From contig CBDAPB010000032.1 in NCBI GenBank assembly GCA_965198265.1, forward strand, positions 2,557 to 66,556: DNA of 64,000 nt. Reading direction: 5' to 3'. The notes beneath the pieces were generated by a model. That model made no database searches. It had not been told where the DNA came from and was given only the letters and a program-made list of their open reading frames with translations. The position numbers and the translations under genes are program-made. This stretch comes from Terriglobia bacterium. Its GTDB lineage: Bacteria; Acidobacteriota; Terriglobia; 20CM-2-55-15. Below are positions 745-22,390 of the stretch, piece after piece (position 1 is the stretch's first letter; every line of letters starts with the position of its first letter).

Positions 745-785
745 AACAGTGACAAGTGGCGAGTGACGAGTCGGAAGTGAGAAGC
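745..785. repeat. degenerate period-7 repeat array (CAGTGAC/AAGTGGC/GAGTGAC/GAGTCGG/AAGTGAG)
   Basis: Five consecutive heptamers of consensus RAGTGRC are visible between the ABC ATPase start and the rhodanese start. It resembles the GTAGTCA arrays found elsewhere in the window. Confidence 0.35.
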
Positions 786-1720: not shown

Positions 1721-1812
1721 GAAGTGGTCAGTGGCGAGTGGTTCAGTGGTCAGTTGAAGGCGAGATCGGTAAGTCCCTTCTGGCCACTGACCACTGATCA
1801 CTGCCCACTTGT
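1721..1812. repeat. period-7 repeat array (GTGGTCA-type, ending CAGTTG) followed by an inverted copy, giving a long imperfect hairpin
   Basis: The stretch gaagtggtcagtggcgagtggttcagtggtcagttgaagg ... ggccactgaccactgatcactgcccacttg sits immediately after the rhodanese stop and before the IS1182 left end. Confidence 0.45.
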
Positions 1813-1855: not shown

Positions 1856-3400
1856 CTAGGAGTCTGCGCGGCAGAGCGCGAAGAACTCGAATTTATTGGG
1901 ATTTGAGAGGGTCTTCGGAGGAGAACCCATCGATTCTTCCGATACGAGGAGTTCAGAGCTGTACGGATACCAGTAATTGGCCGTGTATCGGGTCTGCTGG
2001 GTTCCGGTTTTCCGGATTATGCCCATTCGATCATCCCGTTCATCCGCCGTAAGTTCACCGCCAGAGTGAGCAGGTTCCACTCACCGGTCACTTTGTCCAA
2101 ACCGCGTAGACTGAACTGTCGGAATCCGAGCACCGACTTGATCCACCCGAAGGGCGGCTCGCCAATGTGCTTTCTGGCCCGGTAGCGGTCGCGCCCACGC
2201 TTGGTTTTCATCTTTCTCATCATCCGGCCAACAGCAGTGTCTTTGGGTGGGAGTGGAACATCGGCCAGATTCTTCTCGCGACCCATGGCAACATACCCGT
2301 CAATCTGACGTTGTTCCAACATCCCTAGATTCGACTCGGATCGATATCCCGCATCGGCCAGTACACGTTCGGGATGCTCTCCCAGGTTGTTGTTCAACGC
2401 ATCCAGGGTCGGTTCCAACTGTCCCGCGTCGGACGCATTGGAACTCACCGTTGTCGCTACGATGATCCGGGCCTCGGAATCCACCACCGCCTGCGCGTTG
2501 TAGCATTGCTGGAACCCTTCAGTGGAGGTTTTCATGATCCGGCTTTCCGGATCTGTGAAGTTGTCCTGGGCCGTCGGTTTGGGCTCGCCCATGGGGCGTT
2601 TGAATGGCTTCTTTCCGCATCCGGGTTTGTCGTCTCCCGGTTCCCGTCCCGCTTCCTGGTCCGCAGCCATCTGACGTTCTTCGAGCCGTTTCATTGCTGC
2701 CTGGATCGTGGCCAATCGCTTTTTGCGGGTCGACAACCCATCGGGCAGTTCGTCTCCGCGCCGGTCCTTGCCGTATCGCTGGTCTTCTTCCTCATCGGTC
2801 GCCGTAGCCCGGTTCAACAGATCCCGAATCTGTTCGCCCAATTCGGTCTCCTGCTTCTTCATCCGTTCATAGCTCATCGCTTTGCGTTTGCTCGCATTCG
2901 CCCGCATCTTGGTTCCGTCCACCGCCACGGTTCCCATCTTCACCAGTCCCGCTTCCCGCGCCATCATCACCACTTGCACAAACAGGTTCCCGAACTCCTC
3001 AAGATGCAGTTTGCGAAAATCCGAGATCGTACGGTGCGCCGGAAAGTTCTCCGCTCCCAACATCCGGAACGCCACGTCGTCGGTCAACTTCGCCGCGATC
3101 TTCCGCGACGAGAACACCCCGGTCGCGTACCCGTAGATCAACACCTTCACCATCATCCGCGGATCGTACGCTTGATTGCCCGGTCCGTCCGTTCCATACC
3201 GCTGCTCAAACGCGCTCAAATCCATGGCGTCCACCGTGTCCGATATGAAGTACGACAGGTGATCTTCGGCCAACCAATCTCTCAGCGACGGCGGCAGCAG
3301 CAGGCTCTGTTCTGGGATATAGGTTCGATATGTTCGTGACATGTCCTATCTTCGATCTCTATCCGCCCAATTCCGGTCCTTCTGCCGCGCAGACTCCTAG
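1856..3400 (-). mobile_element. IS1182-family-like insertion sequence, 1545 bp
   Basis: CTAGGAGTCTGCGCGGCAGA at 1856-1875 is the perfect reverse complement of 3381-3400; the 17-bp core is exact and the inverted repeat extends to 20 bp. These repeats bracket the transposase ORF. No obvious target duplication is visible. Confidence 0.75.
2017..3342 (-). CDS. IS1182-family (IS5 superfamily) DDE transposase
   Basis: The 441-aa ORF contains recognisable IS1182-type motifs (VKVLIYGYATGVFSSRKIA, AVDGTKMRANASK, AVVDSEARIIVATTVSSNASD) and is flanked by terminal inverted repeats. Confidence 0.8.
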   Translation of the reverse strand: MSRTYRTYIPEQSLLLPPSLRDWLAEDHLSYFISDTVDAMDLSAFEQRYGTDGPGNQAYDPRMMVKVLIYGYATGVFSSRKIAAKLTDDVAFRMLGAENFPAHRTISDFRKLHLEEFGNLFVQVVMMAREAGLVKMGTVAVDGTKMRANASKRKAMSYERMKKQETELGEQIRDLLNRATATDEEEDQRYGKDRRGDELPDGLSTRKKRLATIQAAMKRLEERQMAADQEAGREPGDDKPGCGKKPFKRPMGEPKPTAQDNFTDPESRIMKTSTEGFQQCYNAQAVVDSEARIIVATTVSSNASDAGQLEPTLDALNNNLGEHPERVLADAGYRSESNLGMLEQRQIDGYVAMGREKNLADVPLPPKDTAVGRMMRKMKTKRGRDRYRARKHIGEPPFGWIKSVLGFRQFSLRGLDKVTGEWNLLTLAVNLRRMNGMIEWA

Positions 3401-3406
3401 CCCCTC

Positions 3407-5050
3407 ATGCCCAGCATCACGCTCAACGGTCAGGTCTACGACGTCGAGGCCGGAAGAACCATCATCCAGATCGCAGATGAAGTGGGAGTCGAGATACCGC
3501 GCTACTGCTACCACCCCGATATCGGGATCGAAGGCAGCTGCCGGATGTGTTTGATCGAAGCCGAAGGCGCGCCGAAGCTGATGCCGTCGTGCGCAACCCC
3601 GGTCCGGGACGGAATGGTCGTCCGGAGCGACACCGAGCGCGTGAAGGAAGCGGTCCGGTACGCGATGGAATTCCTGCTCCTGCATCACCCCATCGACTGC
3701 CCTGTCTGTGACCAGTCGGGCGAATGCTTCCTGCAGGACTACTACATGGAACACGGCGGTCATGACAGCAGGTATCCGCTGGGTCAGAAGGAGAGGCGGC
3801 TCAAGGCATTCGACCTGGGACCACAGGTCAAACTGGACCGGGAGCGTTGCATCCTGTGTACCCGCTGCGTTCGGTTCACACGCGACGTCACAGAGACGGA
3901 CGAGATCCAGGTTTTCGGCCGCGGCCATAAATCCGAGATCGGTGTCTACGAGGACAAACCCCTGGACAATCCTTATTCGATCAACGTTGTGGATGTCTGC
4001 CCGGTCGGGGCCCTGACGAGTTCTGATTTCCGCTTCAAGGTGCGGTCGTGGTTCCTCCAGGGTACGCCGTCGGTATGCGCCGGGTGCAGCACGGGCTGCA
4101 ACCTCAGGATCGACCATTCGGCCCGGCCGCAGGGTGGGGGAGTTCCCGGCTATAGCGCGACGGATGGCCGGGTCTTCCGGACTGTCGGCCGCCGCAACAC
4201 CGAAGTCAACCGCAGCTGGCTCTGTGACGAGGGACGCCTGAGCTTCCATGCCCTGGAAAAGGGCACACGTCTGGTCGAAGGACGAGCGGGCAATCAGATA
4301 AAGTCAGTGGAAGGCATCCTGCCGGAAGTTCATCGCCGGTTCGAGGAAGTTCGAGCGAGCCACGGCGAGAAATCCGTCGCGGGGCTGTGTTCCGCAACGA
4401 GCACGAACGAAGCCCTGTTCCTGATGAAGCGGTATTTCAACGGCCACGTTGATTTCCGCCTGGACAACGAAGACACGACCTACGCCCGACAACAGGACGA
4501 CATGCTCCGACGCCTGGACAAACACCCCAACACCCGCGGGGCACTCGACCTCGGCCGAGATCCGGAACTGCACGGGCTGGAAGGGCTGTGCGAACTCGCC
4601 GAAGACGGACGACTCAAGGCAGTCTGGATTGCTTTTCATCCCCAACTGGTCGGAGAGGACTCCGAGAACATTGTCGGCAACCTCGAACGGCTGATCTCCG
4701 CCGTCGAGTTCAGCGTCGTGAGTACCACTCACGAACTTGGCTGGGCCGCCAAGGCCTCGGTGCTGTTACCGATAGCGGCATGGTCCGAGGAGCAGGGTAC
4801 CTACACGAATTACGCCGGCCGGCTGCAGATCACAAACCGCGCCGTGATGCCGCTGGGGGAGATTCGGCCATTGCACAGGATCATGGCCGAGTTGTTGAAG
4901 TTGCGTGGAGACGCCGCCGAAACGAAACCGTCGGAGACCTTCGCAGAGATCGCAAAGGCGGTCCCGGCCTATCGAGGCCTGGACTATGAAACGATTGGCC
5001 CGCTTGGCGCGATGTCGGTCGTTTCCGAGCCGCAGGAGGTAGTTGGATGA
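3407..5050 (+). CDS. nuoG: NADH-quinone oxidoreductase subunit G (short form, 547 aa)
   Basis: It has the N-terminal 2Fe-2S ferredoxin-like Cys cluster (CRMCLIE...C), the HPIDCPVCDQSGEC [4Fe-4S] motif and CILCTRCVRF. The start is 6 bp after the IS1182 right inverted repeat. Confidence 0.8.
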   Translation: MPSITLNGQVYDVEAGRTIIQIADEVGVEIPRYCYHPDIGIEGSCRMCLIEAEGAPKLMPSCATPVRDGMVVRSDTERVKEAVRYAMEFLLLHHPIDCPVCDQSGECFLQDYYMEHGGHDSRYPLGQKERRLKAFDLGPQVKLDRERCILCTRCVRFTRDVTETDEIQVFGRGHKSEIGVYEDKPLDNPYSINVVDVCPVGALTSSDFRFKVRSWFLQGTPSVCAGCSTGCNLRIDHSARPQGGGVPGYSATDGRVFRTVGRRNTEVNRSWLCDEGRLSFHALEKGTRLVEGRAGNQIKSVEGILPEVHRRFEEVRASHGEKSVAGLCSATSTNEALFLMKRYFNGHVDFRLDNEDTTYARQQDDMLRRLDKHPNTRGALDLGRDPELHGLEGLCELAEDGRLKAVWIAFHPQLVGEDSENIVGNLERLISAVEFSVVSTTHELGWAAKASVLLPIAAWSEEQGTYTNYAGRLQITNRAVMPLGEIRPLHRIMAELLKLRGDAAETKPSETFAEIAKAVPAYRGLDYETIGPLGAMSVVSEPQEVVG

Positions 5051-5694
5051 GCGGCCCCTACGCGGTCGATGTCCCTGTCATCAACGTCAGCGAGCGAGCC
5101 CGGCAAGAGCCCTCGCACTTCCTCCTGACGTTGCGCGCATTCGGAGTCACACTTCGTCACCTGTACCGGAGCCTCTTCAAAGGCGACCGTCCGACGATCG
5201 AGTACCCCGAACAAACCCGACAGTATTCGGAGCGCTTTCGCGGCACGCACGTCCTGACCGTCCGGGATGACGGCAGTCTCAAATGCGTCGCCTGCTACAT
5301 GTGCGCGACAGCCTGCCCCGCCGAATGTATCTACATCGACGCCGGAGAGCATCCGAATCCCGAGATCGAGAAGTTCCCGACCCGCTTCGACATCGACATG
5401 CTGCGCTGCATCTACTGCGGTTTCTGCGTCGATGCCTGCCCCGAAGAAGCCATCATCATGAGCCGGGAACACCATCAGACGGTTTACGAACGAAAAGACG
5501 CGCTCTATTCGATCGAACAGCTGATGGACCGGCCGGGCATCCACGAGAAAGGCCCCGGTTACCGACCCAGCGAACCTTTGATCCAGGCCAACGTCTACGA
5601 CGGCTCCAAGAACGTCTGCGACTACCCGTCGAAGGTGGAAGAACGCTACTCGCCGGTGTTGTACGAGTCGATGATTAAGAAGAGGGAAGGTTAG
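5047..5694 (+). CDS. nuoI: NADH-quinone oxidoreductase subunit I (2x[4Fe-4S] ferredoxin)
   Basis: Two CxxCxxCxxxCP motifs are present (CVACYMCATACP and CIYCGFCVDACP). It overlaps nuoG by ATGA, and there is no nuoH between G and I. Confidence 0.85.
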   Translation: MSGPYAVDVPVINVSERARQEPSHFLLTLRAFGVTLRHLYRSLFKGDRPTIEYPEQTRQYSERFRGTHVLTVRDDGSLKCVACYMCATACPAECIYIDAGEHPNPEIEKFPTRFDIDMLRCIYCGFCVDACPEEAIIMSREHHQTVYERKDALYSIEQLMDRPGIHEKGPGYRPSEPLIQANVYDGSKNVCDYPSKVEERYSPVLYESMIKKREG

Positions 5695-5727
5695 TAGTCA
5701 GTAGTCAGTTGCGAGTCGTCAGTCCCG
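5692..5727. repeat. GTAGTCA heptamer array ending GTCAGTTG
   Basis: The sequence ttagtagtcagtagtcagttgcgagtcgtcagtcc overlaps the nuoI stop. Confidence 0.5.
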
Positions 5728-5741
5728 AAGACGCTAATAAA

Positions 5742-5828
5742 CGGAGGAAGAGGGATTCGAACCCCCGGTGCCGTTTCCAGCACAGTGGTTTTCAAGACCA
5801 CCGCCTTCGACCGCTCGGCCATTCCTCC
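5742..5828 (-). tRNA. tRNA-Ser (anticodon TGA), 87 nt with long variable arm
   Basis: The minus-strand sequence is GGAGGAATGGCCGAGCGGTCGAAGGCGGTGGTCTTGAAAACCACTGTGCTGGAAACGGCACCGGGGGTTCGAATCCCTCTTCCTCCG. It has a 7-bp acceptor stem, anticodon loop CTTGAAA and T-loop GGTTCGAATCC. Confidence 0.85.
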
Positions 5829-6126
5829 GTAGGGGAAAGCATAGCATCTAAGATCGGTCGGTTTCTTTCAATGGACGAGTCAATTTACGAAACGCGTGTC
5901 TTGATCGACCGGGTGCCTCTGCGCGAGCGGTCTGCCGATCACTGCCGCCGTCGAAGTGGTGAAGTTGGTTTGAAGAACTGAAGGAACGGTGCGGCAGGGC
6001 TCGGCTGATTTCCCCCGGAAATTTCCCCAGAAGCTCCCGTATAGCCTTGTAGGAATTGGTAGGCCCCGGGGAATTTCATCCCGGGCCCCTCAGAGAACTG
6101 CAGGTAATCCACTCAAATCAGGGGAT

Positions 6127-8283: not shown

Positions 8284-10206
8284 CTATTTGGGAGGTGGTA
8301 GCGTTATGATCGCTCCCTCGAACGGCGCCACGCCGGCGCCCGGGCACCAGGCTCCGGTACCCCGGAAGTGGGTGTCGATACACCTGAACTCGGCGCCGAG
8401 GCTCAACATGTACTTCACGGTCTCTGGCATCGGCGAACGACGGTGGTATCCGGCTCCGCCGCCGCGGGCCATATCCACCGGCGTTTGGCCAAGCCGGCTG
8501 ACTGCGTTCAACTCGGCGCCCTTCGACAACAGGTAGTCGATGAGCTCGTGGTCGCCCCTGGCCGCCGCATAGTGAAGCGGCGTGTAGCCCCAGGAGTGGG
8601 GCACGCTGACGTCGGCGCCATGTTCCTCGACCAGGTATTTCACCGTGTTGAAGAAGTTGTTGGGCACCTGGCGCATGTCGACGGCGACGAACCCGAGCCA
8701 ACCGCCCCCCGCCGCGGCGTGTATTGGATACATGTTGGCCGTGCCCTTAGGAAACGGCGGCAACCCGGAATCATCCCCGCTTCGCCCGTCCTCCTGCCGC
8801 GAACCCCTCATGCCGACCTCGTCCCATCGGGTCGGAGTGTTCGCATCGGCACCGTAGGACGCCAGCAACTTCATCGCCTCGATGTCCAGCGCGAAGGCGG
8901 CCCGCCAGAACGGGGTGAGACCGTTGACGTCGAGCCCGACGCGCCCGACGACGAATTCCCAGTACCACAGGTGTCTCGTGGTCGCCACGTTCGGGTCGGC
9001 GCCCGCCTCCAGCAGTGCTCGCAGCACGTCCATGTAGCCGCTCTTCTGGTACTCGTGCGCCCGGGGCACCGGGTAACTGGTAAAGTTCGCCCACTGGGTC
9101 TGCAACACACCTAAGAGCGGTGCGACCCGGTCGGTGTGTGTGGCGAGGTTCGGATCCGCGCCGCGCTCGATCAGCACCAGCGCCAGGTCGAAGTGACCGT
9201 TCTGCACGGCACTAACGAGGGGACTGCTTCCGTCGCCGCCGCTGATCTGGTTGATGTCGGCTCCAGCGTCCAGGAGAACCTCCGCCACTGCGATGTGGCC
9301 TTCGCGGGCCGCGTGCAGCAACGCCGTCAACCCACCCGTCTTCCCGACCAGGGTCTCAAACCACGGTCGTGCCAGGTACTCGACTTCGGTCGCCCTGTAC
9401 TTTCGGCGGTTCGCCACATCGTCGGGATGGAAGTCCACGAGCAACTTCTCGGTCGCCTCATCCGAGCGCAGGAACTCGCGCTGGGCGGCGATGGCCGCCT
9501 GCGCCTCCGTGGCGGTCAAAACCCCGTCCTCTCCCTCGGGAGAGCTCTCGAGGATCTCCTTCTGCGCCTCCTGGAGGCGTGCCTGCGCAGCCTGGTCGAT
9601 GACCATTCTCTTCAACACATCGACGACTTCGGTGCGGATCGCCGTATCCGCGCCGTGACCGAGGAGTTCGCGGACCGACGCGGTGCGGCCGAACGACGCG
9701 GCAAACATCAACGGCGTCTGTCGGGCCGCGGCCTCCAGGGCATTCACGCTCGCGCCGTGCTCCAGCAGCACCCGAACCGTGCTCTCGCCCTCGAACGCTT
9801 TCGCGGCGAGGTGGAGCGGCGTCACGCCGCTGGCCGTCGTCACCACGTTCGGGTCGGCACCGGCCTTGATGAGCGCGCCGACGAGAGAGGACTTGCCAGC
9901 GCCGCTGGCGAGGTGGATCGGAGTGTAGCCGCCGAGGCGCGTCGTCGCCCCGACCTCGGCCCCGGCACCGATCAAAAGCCTGGCGATCTCGAGGTTCCCC
10001 GCCTCCGCCGCCATGTGCAGCGCGGTCAAACCGTCCCCCCGGGCCGCGTTCGGATTCGCGCCGTCGGCCAGAAGCGACCGGACGGCCGCCACGTCACCCC
10101 GCTTCGTCGCGTCCAGGAGCGGCAAGTCGGCCGCCGCAGCGGTCCCGGTCAGCAGCGCGATTGCGAGGACCGCCGCCCTCAGGCACGTCCCTCTTCCTGG
10201 ATTCAT
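8284..10206 (-). CDS. secreted ankyrin-repeat protein (copy 2, 640 aa)
   Basis: Same architecture as copy 1. Its start overlaps the DUF1552 stop (ATGA), so it is co-transcribed with the PSCyt pair. Confidence 0.8.
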   Translation of the reverse strand: MNPGRGTCLRAAVLAIALLTGTAAAADLPLLDATKRGDVAAVRSLLADGANPNAARGDGLTALHMAAEAGNLEIARLLIGAGAEVGATTRLGGYTPIHLASGAGKSSLVGALIKAGADPNVVTTASGVTPLHLAAKAFEGESTVRVLLEHGASVNALEAAARQTPLMFAASFGRTASVRELLGHGADTAIRTEVVDVLKRMVIDQAAQARLQEAQKEILESSPEGEDGVLTATEAQAAIAAQREFLRSDEATEKLLVDFHPDDVANRRKYRATEVEYLARPWFETLVGKTGGLTALLHAAREGHIAVAEVLLDAGADINQISGGDGSSPLVSAVQNGHFDLALVLIERGADPNLATHTDRVAPLLGVLQTQWANFTSYPVPRAHEYQKSGYMDVLRALLEAGADPNVATTRHLWYWEFVVGRVGLDVNGLTPFWRAAFALDIEAMKLLASYGADANTPTRWDEVGMRGSRQEDGRSGDDSGLPPFPKGTANMYPIHAAAGGGWLGFVAVDMRQVPNNFFNTVKYLVEEHGADVSVPHSWGYTPLHYAAARGDHELIDYLLSKGAELNAVSRLGQTPVDMARGGGAGYHRRSPMPETVKYMLSLGAEFRCIDTHFRGTGAWCPGAGVAPFEGAIITLPPPK

Positions 10207-16902: not shown

Positions 16903-18640
16903 CCCGCATATTTCACCAATAGGACCAGAAAAGGCCGCCCTGTCTGGCATAAAGCGTTTTGGAATAAACGTTTAACAAGCCAAACGGAGACGGCCCTGAT
17001 GAGAACAGAGTGTAACCAAGTCACGTTCGAATTTCACGGACTTCTTCAACGAAAAGTGAAGGCGCGTTTTGACGGCGGAAAGATCACCTCCGACGCTGGG
17101 GTTCTGCTGTTGCGGGAAGTGGAAAAGCGAACCGGGTTGATCGACGGACTGGCCCAGTGTTTTACCGATCACCGGGACCAGGGGTTGATCGAACACACGG
17201 TAAAGGAATTGTTGGGGCAGCGTGTCTATGGGCTCTGTTTGGGATATGAAGACCTGAACGATCACGACCAGCTGCGGACCGATCCGATGCTGGCCGTGGC
17301 AGTGGAGAAGGCCGATCCTTTGGGAGAGAGCCGACGCCAGGCCGGGGACCGGGGAAAGGCGCTGGCGGGCAAGTGTACGCTCAACCGGCTGGAGCTGAGC
17401 GGGGCTGAGGCCGATGGCCAGGAGCGGTACAAGAAGATCGTCATGGATGAGGACCGGATCGGGAGCTGGATGGTCGATGCGTTTCTGGCCGCCCACGACA
17501 CGGCACCGGAAGAGATTGTTCTGGACATGGACGCGACCGATGATCCGATCCATGGTCAACAGGAAGGCCGGTTCTTTCACGGCTACTACCGCCGCTATTG
17601 CTATCTGCCTTTGTACATCTTCTGTGGCGGACATCTGTTGTGCGCCCGTCTGCGCCGATCCAATATCGATGGTGCCGATGGAGCGGTGGATGAGTTGAAA
17701 CGTATCATCGGCCAGATCCGTCACGGCTGGCCGGAAGTGAGGATCATCATCCGGGCCGATTCCGGCTTTTGCCGGGATGAATTACTCCGTTGGTGTGAGG
17801 CCCATCAGCTCGATTACGTGATCGGGTTGGCCAAGAACGACCGTCTCAAGCGAGAGATTGCGGAAGAAATGACTCAGGCCGAAGGGGAGTTTAACACCAC
17901 CGGAAAACCGGCGCGGGTGTTTAAGGATTTCCAGTACCGGACCCTGAAGAGCTGGAGCTGCACCCGACGCGTCGTTGCCAAGGCCGAGTTCCTGGACAAG
18001 GGTGCCAATCCTCGATTCGTGGTGACCTCATTACCGACAAAACGCCTCGCCGCCCAAGCTCTCTATGAAGATTTCTACTGCGCTCGCGGTGACATGGAGA
18101 ACCGCATCAAGGAACAACAACTGGATCTGTTTGCCGACCGCACCAGCGCGGCGACGATGCGTGCCAATCAGCTCCGGCTGTATCTATCCTCAGCCGCTTA
18201 CATGCTCATGCATGCACTGCGTCGTCTCGGGCTCAAGGATACCCCGCTGGCCCGCGCTCAATGCCAGACCATCCGCCTGAAGCTTCTCAAGATCGGCGCT
18301 CGCATCCGCCTGACGGTCCGCAACGTCTGGCTCTCGATGTCGGAGGCCTATCCCTACGCCGAAGTCTTTGCGACCATCCTTCGCAACCTGCAGTCGATTC
18401 CTCTGCGGTGCTGACACAGGACCCCGATCCACGGCTCTAAAATAGACTTGTTTCTTTCTCCGACGGAGAGCTCTGCCTGACTACCTTATCCAGGCTTCCT
18501 TCAAACCCCAGAAACAAACCCACTCATGGCCAGCGACACCCTGATTGTCCCCATCCGTGCCTTACCGGAACCCAGACTCTCCCAACGCCCACTCTTCCGC
18601 ACGAAAACGCGCTTCATTCACGATTGGTGAAATATGCGGG
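16903..18640 (+). mobile_element. IS1380-family-like insertion sequence, 1738 bp, with 4-bp CTAG target duplication
   Basis: CCCGCATATTTCACCAAT at 16903-16920 is the perfect reverse complement of 18623-18640. CTAG occurs at 16899-16902 and again at 18641-18644. Confidence 0.8.
16999..18414 (+). CDS. IS1380-family DDE transposase
   Basis: The 471-aa protein carries the C-terminal motif YCARGDMENRIKEQQ and other IS1380-type blocks. Confidence 0.8.
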   Translation: MRTECNQVTFEFHGLLQRKVKARFDGGKITSDAGVLLLREVEKRTGLIDGLAQCFTDHRDQGLIEHTVKELLGQRVYGLCLGYEDLNDHDQLRTDPMLAVAVEKADPLGESRRQAGDRGKALAGKCTLNRLELSGAEADGQERYKKIVMDEDRIGSWMVDAFLAAHDTAPEEIVLDMDATDDPIHGQQEGRFFHGYYRRYCYLPLYIFCGGHLLCARLRRSNIDGADGAVDELKRIIGQIRHGWPEVRIIIRADSGFCRDELLRWCEAHQLDYVIGLAKNDRLKREIAEEMTQAEGEFNTTGKPARVFKDFQYRTLKSWSCTRRVVAKAEFLDKGANPRFVVTSLPTKRLAAQALYEDFYCARGDMENRIKEQQLDLFADRTSAATMRANQLRLYLSSAAYMLMHALRRLGLKDTPLARAQCQTIRLKLLKIGARIRLTVRNVWLSMSEAYPYAEVFATILRNLQSIPLRC

Positions 18641-18650
18641 CTAGTTCGTT

Positions 18651-18691
18651 CAGTAGTCAGTAGTCAGTAGTCAGTAGTCGGTAGTCAGTTG
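18651..18691. repeat. GTAGTCA heptamer array (x5) ending GTCAGTTG
   Basis: The sequence cagtagtcagtagtcagtagtcagtagtcggtagtcagttg supplies the stop codon of the first four-helix-bundle gene. Confidence 0.55.
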
Positions 18692-19032
18692 TCGGAACCG
18701 CTACTCGACAGAGCTCGGCGTAGCCCGGCCAGCATCTTTCGCAATTCCGCAGCCGCATCGCGGACCTTCTCAACTTCCCTGGCACCGCAGAACCCAAGCT
18801 CCTCGCTCAAGACAAGTTGTGTGTCGATTTCGGCAACGGAACCTTGAGCGCATGAAATGAAGCGAATGAATTCGCCCTTCTGGTGCCGGGCTTGACCTTC
18901 GGCGACGTTGGAAGGAATTGAAACGGCCGCCCGCCTCAACTGCATTACCAGGCCAAATCTCTCATGTTTCGGAAATCCGCCTGTAAGTTCATAGACGCAT
19001 TTGGCCAGTTCGACTGACTTCTGCCAAACCAC
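18685..19032 (-). CDS. four-helix-bundle protein (TIGR02436 / 23S rRNA-intervening-sequence protein family), copy 1
   Basis: It matches the family pattern (VWQKSVELAKCVYELTGGFPKHERFGLVMQLRRAAVSIPSNVAEGQAR). The track start is a GTG and the true start is uncertain. Confidence 0.7.
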   Translation of the reverse strand: MVWQKSVELAKCVYELTGGFPKHERFGLVMQLRRAAVSIPSNVAEGQARHQKGEFIRFISCAQGSVAEIDTQLVLSEELGFCGAREVEKVRDAAAELRKMLAGLRRALSSSGSDN

Positions 19033-19086
19033 CAGATCTCGATAGCTCTTCGGGAACGAACTAGGCAGTCGAACTGCCTTGTTCGT

Positions 19087-19497
19087 TCAGTAGTCAGTAG
19101 TCGGTAGTCGGTAGTCAGTTGGGGAATCGCTCTTCGACAGGGCTCTGCGCAATCCTGCTAGCATCTTTCTTAGTTCCTGTACCGAATCAAAGATGTCACG
19201 GACCTCTTCCGGCCGGCAGAAACCCAGTTTCGTGCTCAGTACCAGCTGTGTGTCGATTTCGGCTACAGATCCCTGCGCGTAGGAGACAAACCGAATGAAC
19301 TCTCCCTTCTTACGCCGTGCCTGACCCTCCGCGATGTTCGATGAAACGGAGACGGCCGCGCGTCGTAACTGCATTATCAGGCCAAATCTCTCTTGTCTCG
19401 GAAATCCACCCGTCAGTTCATAGACTCGCTTTGCCAGTTCGAGTGATTTCTGCCACACGAGCAGATCTCGATAGCTCTTCGACTTGTAATCGGTCAA
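19087..19497 (-). CDS. four-helix-bundle protein (TIGR02436 family), copy 2
   Basis: It is a paralog of copy 1 at about 70% identity. The track start is a TTG. The C-terminal tail ...PTDYRLPTTDY* is encoded by the heptamer repeats. Confidence 0.7.
   Translation of the reverse strand: MTDYKSKSYRDLLVWQKSLELAKRVYELTGGFPRQERFGLIMQLRRAAVSVSSNIAEGQARRKKGEFIRFVSYAQGSVAEIDTQLVLSTKLGFCRPEEVRDIFDSVQELRKMLAGLRRALSKSDSPTDYRLPTTDY
19088..19121. repeat. GTAGTCA / GTAGTCG heptamer array ending GTCAGTTG
   Basis: The sequence cagtagtcagtagtcggtagtcggtagtcagttg overlaps the 3' end of four-helix-bundle copy 2. Confidence 0.55.
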
Positions 19498-19562
19498 GAA
19501 AGTGGTCTCAAAAAAAGGGCGGGCAAGAGCCAGTCTACTTCAAAGCAACAACGCTTCGCCAC

Positions 19563-19594
19563 AACTGACTACTGACTACTGGCAACTGACTACT
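19563..19594. repeat. heptamer array in the opposite orientation (CAACTGACTACTGACTACTGGCAACTGACTAC)
   Basis: It is the reverse complement of the GTAGTCA...CAGTTG arrays. It lies between the dehydrogenase stop and the upstream side of four-helix-bundle copy 2. Confidence 0.5.
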
Positions 19595-19597
19595 TCC

Positions 19598-20584
19598 CTA
19601 ATATCCCCTAACCTTGTCCACCTGATTGAGCAAGCCTCGACCGTCGCGGAATCGTCCGATGTTGTCAATGAACATGTCGGTGATGCGGCGCCACATTTCC
19701 GGAGAGGTACCCGCCACGTGAGGGGTCAGGATGAGGTTCTTCGTCGTGAAGAGAGGATGGCCGTCGGGAAGCGGATCCGGGACGAAGACGTCGAGGCCGG
19801 CTCCCGCAATCTGCTCACTCTCCAGGGCGGCGATCAGGGCGTCCTGGTCGACGATCTCGCCGCGGGCCAGGTTGATCAGAAAGGAAGTCGGCTTCATCCG
19901 CTCGAACTGGCGCGCTCCGATCATGTTCTCGGTTTCACCGGTCAGTGGAGCGGCAATGACTAGATAGTCGATTTCAGACAGGTGGTCATCGAGCTCATCC
20001 GGTGTGTAGAGCACATCGGCGAGTTCCGAAGCTTCCCTGGTATCACTCTTGAAACCGATCACTCGCATGTCGAAGCTGCGCGCCCGGCGGGCCACCTCGA
20101 CTCCGATCGCTCCAAAGCCAACCACGCCCAGTGTCTTGCCACCCAGCCCTTCAAACGACGGAACGCGACCGAAAATTTCGGAACGTCCCCAGACAGCCTT
20201 GCGCTGAAAATCCATGCAGTCGTGCAGGCGTCGCGAGAAAGCGAGCATCAACCCCATCGCGTGCTCGCCCATGATGGGCGGATGGACGCCCTTTGAATTC
20301 GAGACAACAACGTCGCTGTCAACGACGGGAGGAATCAAGATGAAGGTCAGGCCCGCCATCCCGGTGTGGATCCACTTGAGTTTGCGCGCTGAACGGAACG
20401 CCTCCTCATTGACCATCCATGTCATGAGGACGTCGGCATCAACGATCTCGTCCGGGATCCGTTCGGCAGACGTCAGCCGAACGAATTCGATGTCCGGAAA
20501 GGCCTCGACCACTTCCTCGGCGCACCACTGCGGCATGGTCCAGGCAGGGAATTCAGAGTGGAAGCAGGTCGATAGAATTTTCAT
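19598..20584 (-). CDS. D-isomer-specific 2-hydroxyacid dehydrogenase, NAD-binding
   Basis: It has the NAD-binding motif GVVGFGAIG and the catalytic region of this family (328 aa). Confidence 0.8.
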   Translation of the reverse strand: MKILSTCFHSEFPAWTMPQWCAEEVVEAFPDIEFVRLTSAERIPDEIVDADVLMTWMVNEEAFRSARKLKWIHTGMAGLTFILIPPVVDSDVVVSNSKGVHPPIMGEHAMGLMLAFSRRLHDCMDFQRKAVWGRSEIFGRVPSFEGLGGKTLGVVGFGAIGVEVARRARSFDMRVIGFKSDTREASELADVLYTPDELDDHLSEIDYLVIAAPLTGETENMIGARQFERMKPTSFLINLARGEIVDQDALIAALESEQIAGAGLDVFVPDPLPDGHPLFTTKNLILTPHVAGTSPEMWRRITDMFIDNIGRFRDGRGLLNQVDKVRGY

Positions 20585-20622
20585 CGGCGCGAGATTGTAA
20601 CATAATGATTTAATGTGGAGTT

Positions 20623-20651
20623 GTCAGTAGTCTGTAGTCTGTAGTCAGTTG
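20623..20651. repeat. GTAGTCT / GTAGTCA heptamer array ending GTCAGTTG
   Basis: The sequence gtcagtagtctgtagtctgtagtcagttg lies in the divergent region between the dehydrogenase and the MEMO1-like gene. Confidence 0.5.
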
Positions 20652-20672
20652 ATCCGGACCAACGATAGGAGC

Positions 20673-21482
20673 ATGCATACACGGACTCCAGCCGTCGCCG
20701 GGCAGTTCTATCCGGCAGATCAGAAAGCCCTCGAGGAAGCGCTTCGGGGTTTCATCAGCGAGTCCCAGGCTCGCCTGGCGGCGCGAGGCGTCGTCGTTCC
20801 CCACGCCGGTTATGTTTACTCGGGCCATGTTGCCGGAGCGGTGTATTCCCGGTTGCGACTGCCGGGTCGCTACATCATCCTCTGCCCGAACCACACCGGG
20901 CGGGGCACGCCTCTGTCGATCATGAGCGCGGGCGCGTGGAAAACGCCCCTGGGCGACGTTCCGATCGATTCACCCCTGGCGGGGTTGCTATGCTCGATGA
21001 ACCCGGAACTTCGCGAGGACCGCTCGGCCCACGAGTTCGAACACGCCCTCGAAGTCCAGCTGCCCTTCCTTCAGTTCCTCGCTTCCGGCGAGATCCGATT
21101 CGTGCCCATCACTGTCGGGACCTCAGACATCGGCACGCTCACACGGCTTGGGAACGCGATGGCAGAGGCAATCGAACAGGCAGGCGAGGAAGTTCTCATC
21201 GTTGCGTCCAGCGACATGAACCACTACGAACCCGACGCGATAACGCGAGTCAAGGATCGGAAAGCAATCGAGCGGATGCTCGCCCGTGACGCGGAGGGAC
21301 TCCACGAAGTTGTCACACGCGAACAGATTTCCATGTGCGGATTCGCCCCGACAACGTCGATGCTGATCGCAGGTAATCAACTCGGCGCGACCCAGGCCGA
21401 ACTGGTCAAGTACGCCACGTCGGGCGACATCTTCGGCGATCGTGAACGCGTTGTCGGCTACGCCGGTGTGATCGTTTCCTAG
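20673..21482 (+). CDS. MEMO1-family protein (AmmeMemoRadiSam system protein B-like)
   Basis: The N-terminus MHTRTPAVAGQFYPADQKALEEAL and the H-rich motif VVPHAGYVYSG match the family. The ATG at 20673 is preceded by the SD gataggagc; the track ORF starts at an upstream TTG. Confidence 0.75.
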   Translation: MHTRTPAVAGQFYPADQKALEEALRGFISESQARLAARGVVVPHAGYVYSGHVAGAVYSRLRLPGRYIILCPNHTGRGTPLSIMSAGAWKTPLGDVPIDSPLAGLLCSMNPELREDRSAHEFEHALEVQLPFLQFLASGEIRFVPITVGTSDIGTLTRLGNAMAEAIEQAGEEVLIVASSDMNHYEPDAITRVKDRKAIERMLARDAEGLHEVVTREQISMCGFAPTTSMLIAGNQLGATQAELVKYATSGDIFGDRERVVGYAGVIVS

Positions 21483-21493
21483 TTCGTTTTTTT

Positions 21494-21647
21494 CACCGCA
21501 AAGGCGCAAAGACGCGAAGATCTTCTTCGCGCATGGGACTGCCGACCCTTCGTCCGCCGTGAGTGATACCCGCCTAGGCGAGAACCAGCTCTCATTGAGC
21601 TCTGGTAGCTAGGGGCTTTTCCTTTGCGTCTTTGCGCCTTTGCGGTG
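21494..21647. mobile_element. MITE-like element: 154 bp bounded by 22-bp perfect terminal inverted repeats
   Basis: CACCGCAAAGGCGCAAAGACGC at 21494-21515 is the exact reverse complement of 21626-21647. The interior is non-coding and contains the palindrome gaagatcttcttc. Confidence 0.4.
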
Positions 21648-21682
21648 AGATCCGACGCTTCTCAGGAACCGATCTGAGGCAG

Positions 21683-22390
21683 CTAGCGTGGGCTGGGAGG
21701 AGGATTTACCGGGGCAGGTGGATCGATGCCGATTTCGAAGCCGTATTGTGGGTCGGTTACGAATATTTCAGGTGTGATCCAGTCCGTTGGATAGACGAAG
21801 GGAGGCGACATGTAGCCTTCCAGGGAACCGGCACGGTATAAGCGGGCCGGGCGGGCGTTGCTTCCCCGGAACACAAGCAACGACGGCTCCACGTTGGCCG
21901 CTTCGAGGCCGCCGGAAGCCACGTAAACTGTCACTTTGTCCCCCTCCACGCCGAACTCCGCCTCAGCCGGCAACTCCGAAAGTGTAAAGTCTCCGGCCGG
22001 TGTCTCAATTCGGATAGGGCCAAGGCCGGACCGCGCGCGCAAAGACCCACTCTCGAGTCTGACGGCAGCCATCACGTCCAACCCGCCGAGCGCGCTCATC
22101 GTCACTGCTGAACGCTCCCCGAGCGTGACCCGGGAACCACCCTCAAAGGCAACCACTGCAAATGACGCCGATCCGGTCCGGACGGTATCTCCCTCGCCGA
22201 GGGATGCGCCGGGAGATCCGGCGCCGTCATCGGAGCGTTCAATCTCTACGGCAGCACCACGGGCAACGATCGACGGAAACGTCTGGGAGTAGCCCCAGGC
22301 GGGCAAGAGCAGCGCAATCGTCCCTGGCAAAAGCAGGGCAATCGTCCCTGGCAAGAGCAGGGAAATCGTGAGTGTGATGACTCGACTCAT
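21683..22390 (-). CDS. secreted protein, FecR-domain-like
   Basis: It has a signal peptide. The pattern GDTVRTGSASFAVVAFEGGSRVTLGERSAVTM resembles the FecR fold, but the match is weak. Confidence 0.45.
   Translation of the reverse strand: MSRVITLTISLLLPGTIALLLPGTIALLLPAWGYSQTFPSIVARGAAVEIERSDDGAGSPGASLGEGDTVRTGSASFAVVAFEGGSRVTLGERSAVTMSALGGLDVMAAVRLESGSLRARSGLGPIRIETPAGDFTLSELPAEAEFGVEGDKVTVYVASGGLEAANVEPSLLVFRGSNARPARLYRAGSLEGYMSPPFVYPTDWITPEIFVTDPQYGFEIGIDPPAPVNPPPSPR
22304..22371 (-). repeat. 24-bp tandem repeat (about 2.8 copies) inside the signal-peptide coding region
   Basis: The DNA ggcaagagcagcgcaatcgtccct / ggcaaaagcagggcaatcgtccct / ggcaagagcagggaaatcgt encodes ISLLLPGT-IALLLPGT-IALLLPAW. 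Confidence 0.7.

Follow-up and report, generated by a model that had tools for sequence, protein, structure and literature searches.

The stretch analysed here (the window) comprises 64,000 nucleotides of contig CBDAPB010000032.1 from a Terriglobia bacterium, with a G+C content of 60%, and carries in its first 21 kb, and none further on, a set of arrays of tandem heptamers. We write these arrays in AGT phase, with each unit read as AGT followed by four variable bases (AGTNNNN). Two of them enclose, as inverted partners, a small gene for a four-helix-bundle protein of the PF05635 / TIGR02436 family, named the '23S rRNA intervening sequence protein' family. This gene, which we call gene 2, lies downstream of a D-2-hydroxyacid dehydrogenase gene that is itself divergent from a Memo-family gene, and it is followed by a second, truncated copy, gene 1. 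Reading in the direction of these genes, the locus contains:

20619 to 20651, plus strand: single array in the divergent region between the dehydrogenase and Memo genes, with the units AGTTGTC, AGTAGTC, TGTAGTC, TGTAGTC and AGTTGAT
19598 to 20584, minus strand: D-2-hydroxyacid dehydrogenase gene, upstream of the four-helix-bundle genes and on the same strand
19560 to 19594, minus strand: 5' arm of the gene 2 module, reading AGTAGTC, AGTTGCC, AGTAGTC, AGTAGTC and AGTTGTG on the sense strand of the gene
19087 to 19497, minus strand: four-helix-bundle gene 2, PF05635 / TIGR02436
19089 to 19123, plus strand: 3' arm of the gene 2 module, with AGTAGTC twice, GGTAGTC twice and AGTTGGG, and thus ACT-type on the sense strand of the gene
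18685 to 19032, minus strand: four-helix-bundle gene 1, PF05635 / TIGR02436, a 5'-truncated second copy
18652 to 18693, plus strand: 3' array of gene 1, with AGTAGTC four times, GGTAGTC and AGTTGTC, supplying Asp-Asn and the TGA stop

The array upstream of the dehydrogenase gene is a single arm of the same repeat family as the arrays that lie elsewhere in the window:

5693 to 5727, plus strand: single array with the units AGTAGTC, AGTAGTC, AGTTGCG, AGTCGTC and AGTCCCG, starting at the TAG stop of a ferredoxin-like gene
1723 to 1809, plus strand: gene-free hairpin, made of an AGTGGTC-type array (1723-1754) and its inverted partner (1780-1809) around a loop of 25 nucleotides
748 to 782, plus strand: diverged array upstream of a rhodanese gene, with the units AGTGACA, AGTGGCG, AGTGACG, AGTCGGA and AGTGAGA

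Direct reading of the window recovered all seven arrays that an earlier, sequence-only reading had reported, and Tandem Repeats Finder assigned period 7 to every one of them. The sequence GTAGTCAGTAGTCA, allowing up to two mismatches, matches the window 15 times against 0.16 expected from dinucleotide-preserving shuffles, while GTCAGTTG occurs 8 times against 1.55 expected and is array-terminal in seven of the eight cases. Five arrays are built of AGTAGTC, the inverted pair at 1723-1809 of AGTGGTC, and the array at 748-782 of AGTGACG, a type that is dominant around four-helix-bundle genes in many metagenomic loci. All seven sit at gene edges, as that reading had stated, being either intergenic or overlapping the last codons of a gene. 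For example, the first TAG of the array at 5693-5727 serves as the stop codon of the ferredoxin-like gene (5047-5694), and the hairpin at 1723-1809 starts 2 nucleotides past the stop of the rhodanese gene. The long hairpin that had been proposed for this last element is borne out by folding, with a predicted energy of -52.3 kcal/mol and a z-score of -6.4 for the segment 1715-1815. A tRNA-Ser gene (5741-5829, minus strand) lies 13 nucleotides from the array at 5693-5727; in a metagenomic locus, L151, a tRNA gene similarly lies about 10 nucleotides past the 3' arm of a four-helix-bundle module (3386-3458).

Gene 2 matches its Pfam family with E = 2e-36 and TIGR02436 in NCBIfam with E = 8e-35, gene 1 matches Pfam with E = 2e-34, and both proteins give weak matches to the Avd profile. 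The closest solved structures are 2GSC, which is nearest to the gene 2 protein, and 2RLD, each with five chains and a function that its entry leaves unstated. In the protein alignment the motif SN[IV]AEGxxR is strongly conserved and many other residues are invariant. A search of both proteins for defence systems with PADLOC gave no match. As the sequence-only reading had seen, the arrays provide the stop codons and last residues of both genes: the last 11 codons and the stop of gene 2 are the array at 19089-19123, producing the tail ...PTDYRLPTTDY followed by TGA, and gene 1 ends in Asp-Asn. That reading had taken the link between arrays and four-helix-bundle genes to be incidental. Our results indicate instead that it is the main regularity of the system, the flanking arrays being inverted partners of each other.

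The 5' arm of gene 2 begins 4 nucleotides after the dehydrogenase stop (stop at 19598, arm from 19594). When the sense RNA of 19080-19600 is folded in silico, the arms 19560-19594 and 19089-19123 pair in both the minimum-energy and the centroid structures. The same 5' arm is also complementary to the array at 20619-20651 in the 5' leader of the dehydrogenase gene. On one transcript, it therefore has two alternative partners, one upstream, which encloses the dehydrogenase open reading frame (ORF), and one downstream, which encloses the four-helix-bundle ORF; this alternative pairing could act as a structural switch. Gene 1 presents a different picture, as it has no 5' arm, no 5' leader and no canonical start. 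Its open frame extends to 19086, where it adjoins the TGA of gene 2 without a change of frame, so that readthrough of this single TGA would yield a tandem two-domain protein. The array at 19089-19123 is at the same time a direct repeat of the array at 18652-18693.

The association between arrays and PF05635 genes extends well beyond the window. The family is large, with 6,662 matches at E ≤ 1e-10 to one of the window proteins, and we selected 80 metagenomic loci by protein alignment alone, taking the best protein matches. Using a detector that requires four anchors spaced 7 nucleotides apart, an AGT-orientation array was found within 250 nucleotides upstream of the gene in 48 of 77 loci, against 5 with the opposite orientation, and an ACT-orientation array at or just after the 3' end of the gene in 43 of 76 loci, against 3 with the opposite orientation. 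Both arms were present in 31 of the 80 loci. A second detector, which ignores sequence and scores only self-similarity at a given period, placed period 7 beside PF05635 genes at 1.91 per kb and elsewhere in the same loci at 0.155 per kb, an enrichment of about 12 times. Period 8 showed a smaller excess (0.25 against 0.027 per kb, from 10 near and 7 far segments) and other periods essentially none. Since this sequence-free detector again recovered AGT within 31 of 33 upstream consensus units and ACT within 36 of 42 downstream ones, the conserved trinucleotide is not an artefact of the first detector. The proteins carry the same imprint: among the best 120 homologs, many C-termini are translated arrays (VTRH*, ATRH*, KTDH*, PTRHSSLITHH, TTNH*), and some N-termini are translated arrays of the opposite orientation, that is, 5' arms (SVVSGQL, SVVSGQLLGV, MVSGQLWGV).

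Apart from the trinucleotide, the units differ widely from locus to locus (AGTTTCA, AGTCCTG, AGTGGGA, AGTTCTC, AGTAGCT, AGTAAGC, AGTGGAT, AGTCTTC and others), and the two arms of one module resemble each other. In the best register, the identity of the variable positions between arms is 79% within a locus against 37% between loci, a mean that none of 10,000 permutations reached. Overall, arm complementarity is 86% (34 modules), and the lengths of the upstream and downstream arms are correlated (Spearman rho 0.53, p = 0.001). In a minority of modules GAT/ATC replaces AGT/ACT, as in L179, which has GATGTCA upstream and CATCTGA downstream. The units of L179 resemble both the GACAGAT heptamers of the Coxiella intervening sequence (PMC4990558) and a run of GACAGAA/GACAGAG units found immediately beside a GTAGTCA array in L058, a contig of Accumulibacter.

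The modules also follow strict rules of orientation and placement. Among close inverted pairs in genome loci selected for their arrays (gap below 100 nucleotides), the order AGT-array, loop, ACT-array occurs 43 times and the reverse order 0 times. The gene-free hairpins among them have matching arms (0.69 against 0.44 between loci, a value that 0 of 5,000 permutations reached), and their predicted stability is very high, with a median z-score of -6.7. Around the four-helix-bundle genes, 39 of 49 5' arms start between -10 and +16 nucleotides from the stop codon of a long upstream ORF on the same strand, and 27 of 41 3' arms are followed, after no more than 40 and often 2-14 nucleotides, by the start of a long ORF on that strand. 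Thus, the module is a cassette wedged between a stop codon and the next start codon and co-directional with both neighbours. The window obeys this rule on the upstream side, at the dehydrogenase stop.

To place these arrays among known repeats, we considered both their distribution and the repeats already described. The exact 18-mer GTAGTCAGTAGTCAGTTG occurs in at least 115 genome contigs among the matches listed, from many phyla, including Acidobacteriota, Cyanobacteria (Microcoleus, Calothrix), Planctomycetota, Verrucomicrobiota, Chloroflexota and Bacteroidota. The flanks of these matches reveal a large, degenerate period-7 family in which the unit type switches along a single array (CAGTAGT, CAGTTGT, CAGTGGT, CCGTGGT, CAGTTGG, TTAGTTG and more). 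In the loci selected in this way, 201 of 222 arrays lie outside ORFs though 84% of the sequence is coding, and they are found in tandem, convergent and divergent gene contexts. The fixed terminal sequence that the sequence-only reading had described is valid for the window lineage, where the terminal unit AGTTG is typical (the window and its relatives L116, L117 and L118). In other lineages, AGC, AGA or AGG generally stands at the end of an array where a further AGT would fall, and we therefore rejected AGTTG as a universal terminal unit.

Heptamer tandem repeats, under the name STRR, have reportedly been on record in bacteria since 1990, and we know of no established function for the STRR, long simple sequence repeat (LSSR), TAACTGA or GGGAATC repeats. 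The STRR units are CCCCAGT for STRR1, TTGGTCA for STRR2 and CAACAGT for STRR3. Units of the STRR2 and STRR3 types share arrays with GTAGTCA in other genomes. The window units AGTAGTC, AGTGGTC and AGTGACG are identical neither to these units nor to TAACTGA; the nearest named unit is TAACTGA, which is one base from CAACTGA (the AGTTG terminal unit as read on the opposite strand) and two bases from CTACTGA. The arrays consist of head-to-tail units of 7 nucleotides, in at least three copies and commoner than chance, and they share with the named repeats an intergenic position, copy-number steps of 7 nucleotides and an occurrence in Cyanobacteria, Bacteroidetes and other phyla. They belong, in short, to the heptanucleotide tandem repeat class, from whose named members they differ in their unit, AGTAGTC. 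STRR repeats are cited as described in Calothrix, and heptamers as over-represented among the long simple repeats of many bacteria, with slippage proposed as the cause (cited in PMC4692102 and PMC4679880). The GGGAATC (GGGGAYT) repeats of Xanthomonas form 70-75 convergent pairs (PMC4692102), comparable to the inverted pairs seen here. The suggestion that the window arrays form an undescribed family thus stands in part: the family is real and its unit unnamed, but the class is already known. What appears to be new is the AGT-invariant unit, the strict orientation of the pairs, the systematic bracketing of PF05635 genes and the wedge between a stop and the next start, for which we found no description in a full-text literature that leaves most subscription journals out of reach.

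Beggiatoaceae, Cyanobacteria and Bacteroidetes carry TAACTGA repeats, in many cases immediately 5' of start codons, and a role through a single-strand RNA-binding protein in translation has been proposed for them (MacGregor, PMC4679880). The ACT-type arrays occupy the same position, and the arrays studied here could likewise serve translational control, as sites for such a protein or as G-poor leaders that load ribosomes or proteins where a Shine-Dalgarno sequence is lacking. Single arrays that read ACT on the sense strand lie at a median of 19 nucleotides from the downstream start, those that read AGT at a median of 4 nucleotides from the upstream stop, an ATG follows the 3' arm by 2-14 nucleotides in many loci, and in the window the array at 20619-20651, ACT-type on the dehydrogenase sense strand, ends 35 nucleotides upstream of the dehydrogenase start codon. 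Translational control would also explain the orientation rule, as every gene start would see a G-poor arm. However, the distances for single arrays rest on crude ORF calls and are biased, because arrays containing TGA or TAG cut ORFs short; the binding protein is hypothetical; and complementary pairs around one gene family are left unexplained. We therefore consider this proposal quite improbable.

The locus can be followed through related genomes. The arrangement of Memo, dehydrogenase and four-helix-bundle genes recurs in L117, where the protein is 91% identical and both arms consist of AGTAGTC, and in L118, where the protein is 67% identical and both arms consist of AGTGGTC at the same syntenic position; L116, L117 and L118 all have the 5' arm of the gene 2 module. 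Genes with the planctomycete-specific PSD / PSCyt domains are present in one syntenic relative. Synonymous divergence (dS) among the four-helix-bundle genes of the window, L117 and L118 is 1.6-2.2 (about 1.6 for L118), a time over which neutral sequence would be scrambled. The ratio of nonsynonymous to synonymous divergence (dN/dS) is 0.09-0.22 in all comparisons, with 0.22 for gene 2 against its L117 ortholog, and by this measure the four-helix-bundle ORFs are real genes under purifying selection.

At the other end of the scale, L116 is 98.9% identical to the window over 4.6 kb, and its array between the Memo and dehydrogenase genes (20619-20651 in the window) is longer by exactly one heptamer, the signature of slippage; this array has a counterpart in L117 and none in L118. 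Copy number thus varies by 7-nucleotide steps between close strains. Gene 1 belongs to an extra unit that is present in the window and L116 and missing from L117 and L118, which have one four-helix-bundle gene each. Genes 1 and 2 have diverged to a dS of 1.67, yet their 3' arrays and the palindrome that follows are nearly identical, so the arrays are either under selection or homogenised. Considering this divergence and its absence from L117 and L118, the second unit was probably gained by recombination between arrays and not by a recent duplication in place.

Such changes are what passive simple-sequence repeats would show, heptamers being the most slippage-prone and tolerated between genes, with cassettes settling between arrays through short-homology recombination. 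Beyond the one-unit difference between near-identical strains and the over-representation of heptamers attributed to slippage in the work cited above, the switching of unit types inside single arrays is in line with this idea, and so is the extra gene 1 unit, which is bounded by direct arrays as recombination between arrays predicts. Nevertheless, slippage alone leaves unexplained the invariance of AGT across phyla, the orientation rule of 43 against 0, the period-specific 12-fold enrichment next to a single gene family, the persistence of both arms of one locus through a dS above 1.5 and the tight placement at stop and start codons. For these reasons, we judge it distinctly unlikely that the arrays are passive.

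Two further features lie at the outer ends of the 3' arrays of the window:

19046 to 19088, minus strand: small near-perfect palindrome after the 3' arm of gene 2, GAACGAACAAGGCAG-ttcga-CTGCCTAGTTCGTTC, found by sequence alignment
16999 to 18414: DDE_Tnp_1_4 transposase gene within an insertion sequence at 16903-18634

The palindrome, of about 15 bp (GAACGAACTAGGCAG-loop-CTGCCTAGTTCGTTC), adjoins the outer end of each 3' arm and is the source of the 'gttcgttc' seen in front of two arrays. It is kept after the 3' arms in L116 (about 4585-4620) and L117 (about 8482-8520). The insertion sequence sits in the palindrome after the 3' array of gene 1, which it splits after GAACGAACTAG, and is missing both from the near-identical L116 contig and from L117.

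The sequence-only reading had also raised a protein-binding array and a small mobile repeat as possible roles, and both continue as rivals. Their most developed form is a DNA system resembling repetitive extragenic palindromes (REPs) and their RAYT transposases, in which the four-helix-bundle protein, pentameric in crystals, recognises AGTNNNN arrays: a few genes would sit between inverted arrays of their own type, and many gene-free hairpins and single arrays would be maintained or spread by the protein. REP and REPIN-RAYT systems are indeed similar in consisting of short, intergenic, hairpin-forming repeats, with numerous scattered inverted doublets and few protein genes, themselves flanked by inverted copies of the repeat. 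Here too, arrays far outnumber PF05635 genes, yet most such genes have arrays. Moreover, the arms point towards the interior of the element as strictly as the terminal repeats of a transposon; the unit type seems specific to the genome or lineage and common to gene-flanking arms and the other arrays of a locus; and the invariant AGT suggests sequence-specific recognition. The conserved motif and the many invariant residues of the protein point the same way, as does the family itself, which includes Avd (although the Avd profile matches of the window proteins are weak). In diversity-generating retroelements, the binding partners of Avd are nucleic acid and the reverse transcriptase. The extra array-bounded unit of gene and array in the window and L116 would also suit a mobile element.

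The differences are nonetheless substantial. A REP is a single imperfect palindrome of about 35 nucleotides, whereas the arrays are tandem heptamers, and the gene flanked in RAYT systems encodes an HUH tyrosine (Y1) transposase, whereas here it encodes a PF05635 four-helix bundle with no catalytic domain and no known nuclease or recombinase fold. A target-site duplication was looked for at the outer arm ends in the window and none was seen, and the module occupies the same syntenic position in three genomes whose genes have diverged to a dS of up to 2.2, so it has not been mobile on that timescale. On balance, we regard a REP-like DNA system as rather unlikely.

The arrays had, in addition, been suggested to act as terminators or insulators at gene ends. 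Many of them directly follow stop codons, the inverted pairs form very stable predicted hairpins, and (GTAGTCA)3, read directly, has stop codons in all six frames. Against this, stop codons are missing from most unit types, TGTCCCACGCC comes after the hairpin at 1723-1809, and the hairpins are not succeeded by a U-tract. The three weak terminator-like matches in 18300-21000 all lie outside the arrays; one of them, the palindrome core at 19063-19079, which scored as terminator-like on the plus strand, adjoins the array at 19089-19123. We therefore rejected intrinsic terminators as an identity for the arrays, and the terminator and promoter consensus scans as a whole gave about as many sites as shuffled sequence. 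In addition, the arrays lie mostly between close co-directional genes and also in divergent promoter regions, and a stem around an entire gene is no terminator. A role in termination or insulation is accordingly very improbable. CRISPR arrays, which have repeats of 24-48 nucleotides separated by unique spacers of similar length, were also rejected, as the units here are contiguous, 7 nucleotides long and free of spacers.

The closest parallel to the gene-containing modules is the intervening sequence of 23S rRNA, found in Leptospira and Coxiella burnetii (PMC4990558). In both cases, a PF05635 (S23p) ORF lies inside the element, inverted repeats form a long stem around it (here by prediction), and the element is transcribed within a host RNA (here as we infer from its context). 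In Coxiella, the intervening sequence encodes a protein of the same family, and RNase III cleaves its 28-bp terminal stem; between this stem and the ORF, just 5' of the latter, lie tandem heptamers whose copy number varies, with an RNase III cut at the first repeat (PMC4990558). In contrast, the modules studied here lie between protein-coding genes, and their whole stem consists of tandem AGTNNNN units. Searches for rRNA were negative for the window, for 18300-21000 at E ≤ 1 and for 20 related loci, and Rfam gave no match in the window at the gathering threshold, none in 18300-21000 at E ≤ 1 and only a tRNA in the 20 related loci. Because they lie outside rRNA, the modules do not belong to the intervening-sequence family proper, which occupies helix 25 or 45 of the 23S rRNA gene.

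A second parallel is the (ATCTTTC)n repeat in the 5' untranslated region of hmw in Haemophilus influenzae, which experiments have shown to be transcribed as one strand of a long hairpin that RNase III cleaves (PMC12721329). The likeness lies in a transcribed heptamer array that serves as a hairpin arm and changes in 7-nucleotide steps. The hmw hairpin differs in being a single locus for adhesin phase variation, with a G-rich unique sequence as the opposing arm and no enclosed gene (PMC12721329).

On this basis, the explanation that we favour, to which we would give about an even chance, is that the arrays around gene 2 form the arms of a cassette that corresponds to a 23S rRNA intervening sequence but stands free, within an operon. 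The cassette runs from the upstream stop codon through an AGT-type arm, about 60 nucleotides, the four-helix-bundle gene and an ACT-type arm, with a co-directional start codon directly after that arm in most related loci. Since it has no recognisable promoter and shares the direction of its neighbours, the cassette would be transcribed within the host transcript. Pairing of its arms would then give an imperfect stem, some 30-35 bp long, from which the small gene is looped out, and this stem is probably a substrate of RNase III, or at least an element that organises the RNA. Processing of the stem could free or regulate the four-helix-bundle mRNA and rejoin the flanking cistrons. The arrays themselves would change by 7-nucleotide slippage and by recombination with one another, which could have given rise to the second, truncated gene copy of the window. 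We consider the architecture of the cassette well supported, and the mechanism is what the likeness to the intervening sequences suggests.

Several observations weigh against this explanation. The link holds only from gene to arrays: a PF05635-like ORF is present in only 3 of 115 array-selected loci by profile (2 of 115 by phmmer), so that arrays cannot be taken as markers of four-helix-bundle genes, and about a quarter of these genes have no detectable array. The 80 metagenomic loci, being the best protein matches, are phylogenetically non-independent. As for the RNA, the fold of the whole gene 2 region is no more stable than that of shuffles (z-score -1.2), the closing stem alone being notable. 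G-U-compatible changes were sought among the mismatches between arms and are not in excess (33 sense-compatible, 26 antisense-compatible and 54 transversions), and selection specifically on RNA pairing is thus not demonstrated. An arm often resembles other arrays of its locus as closely as it does its own partner (identity 0.8-0.9), so the match between arms may reflect a genome-wide spread or homogenisation of units, or co-evolution with a factor that acts on all arrays. Finally, the invariant AGT and the strict order of AGT-type before ACT-type arms do not follow from an RNA stem alone.

The window carries other repeats as well. An inverted pair of period-8 tandem repeats (CGCAAAGN three times and its complement) at 21494-21648, downstream of the Memo gene, is predicted to fold with a closing stem of about 27 bp and a loop of about 100 nucleotides (-86.8 kcal/mol, z-score -7.3). 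A 24-bp tandem repeat at 22302-22369 (2.8 copies, 90% match), within the ORF at 21683-22390, encodes a repeated LLLPGTIA in the N-terminal, signal-like part of the protein.

To our knowledge, PF05635 proteins have crystal structures and no assigned role outside diversity-generating retroelements, and we know of no established origin for the 23S rRNA intervening sequences. The regularities described here, namely the invariant AGT, the strict orientation and matching of the arms and the wedge from stop to start, tie these two puzzles to that of the heptamer repeats. They also lead to predictions: RNase III should cut in the arms, the pentameric protein should bind (AGTNNNN)n, and the orientation of the arms should affect the expression of neighbouring genes. 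It is tempting to speculate, although we think it more doubtful than probable by some way, that AGTNNNN arrays and PF05635 proteins form one bacteria-wide, previously unrecognised system in which the protein binds, processes or spreads its own arms, in the manner of RAYT transposases and their REPs. If true, a single mechanism would account for how the 23S rRNA intervening sequences arose, as well as for repeats of the STRR and TAACTGA types and for the many 'S23p' genes that are free-standing. Moreover, if the stem does loop the gene out of the operon transcript, it would represent a general way for a promoterless gene to reside in operons without disrupting them.

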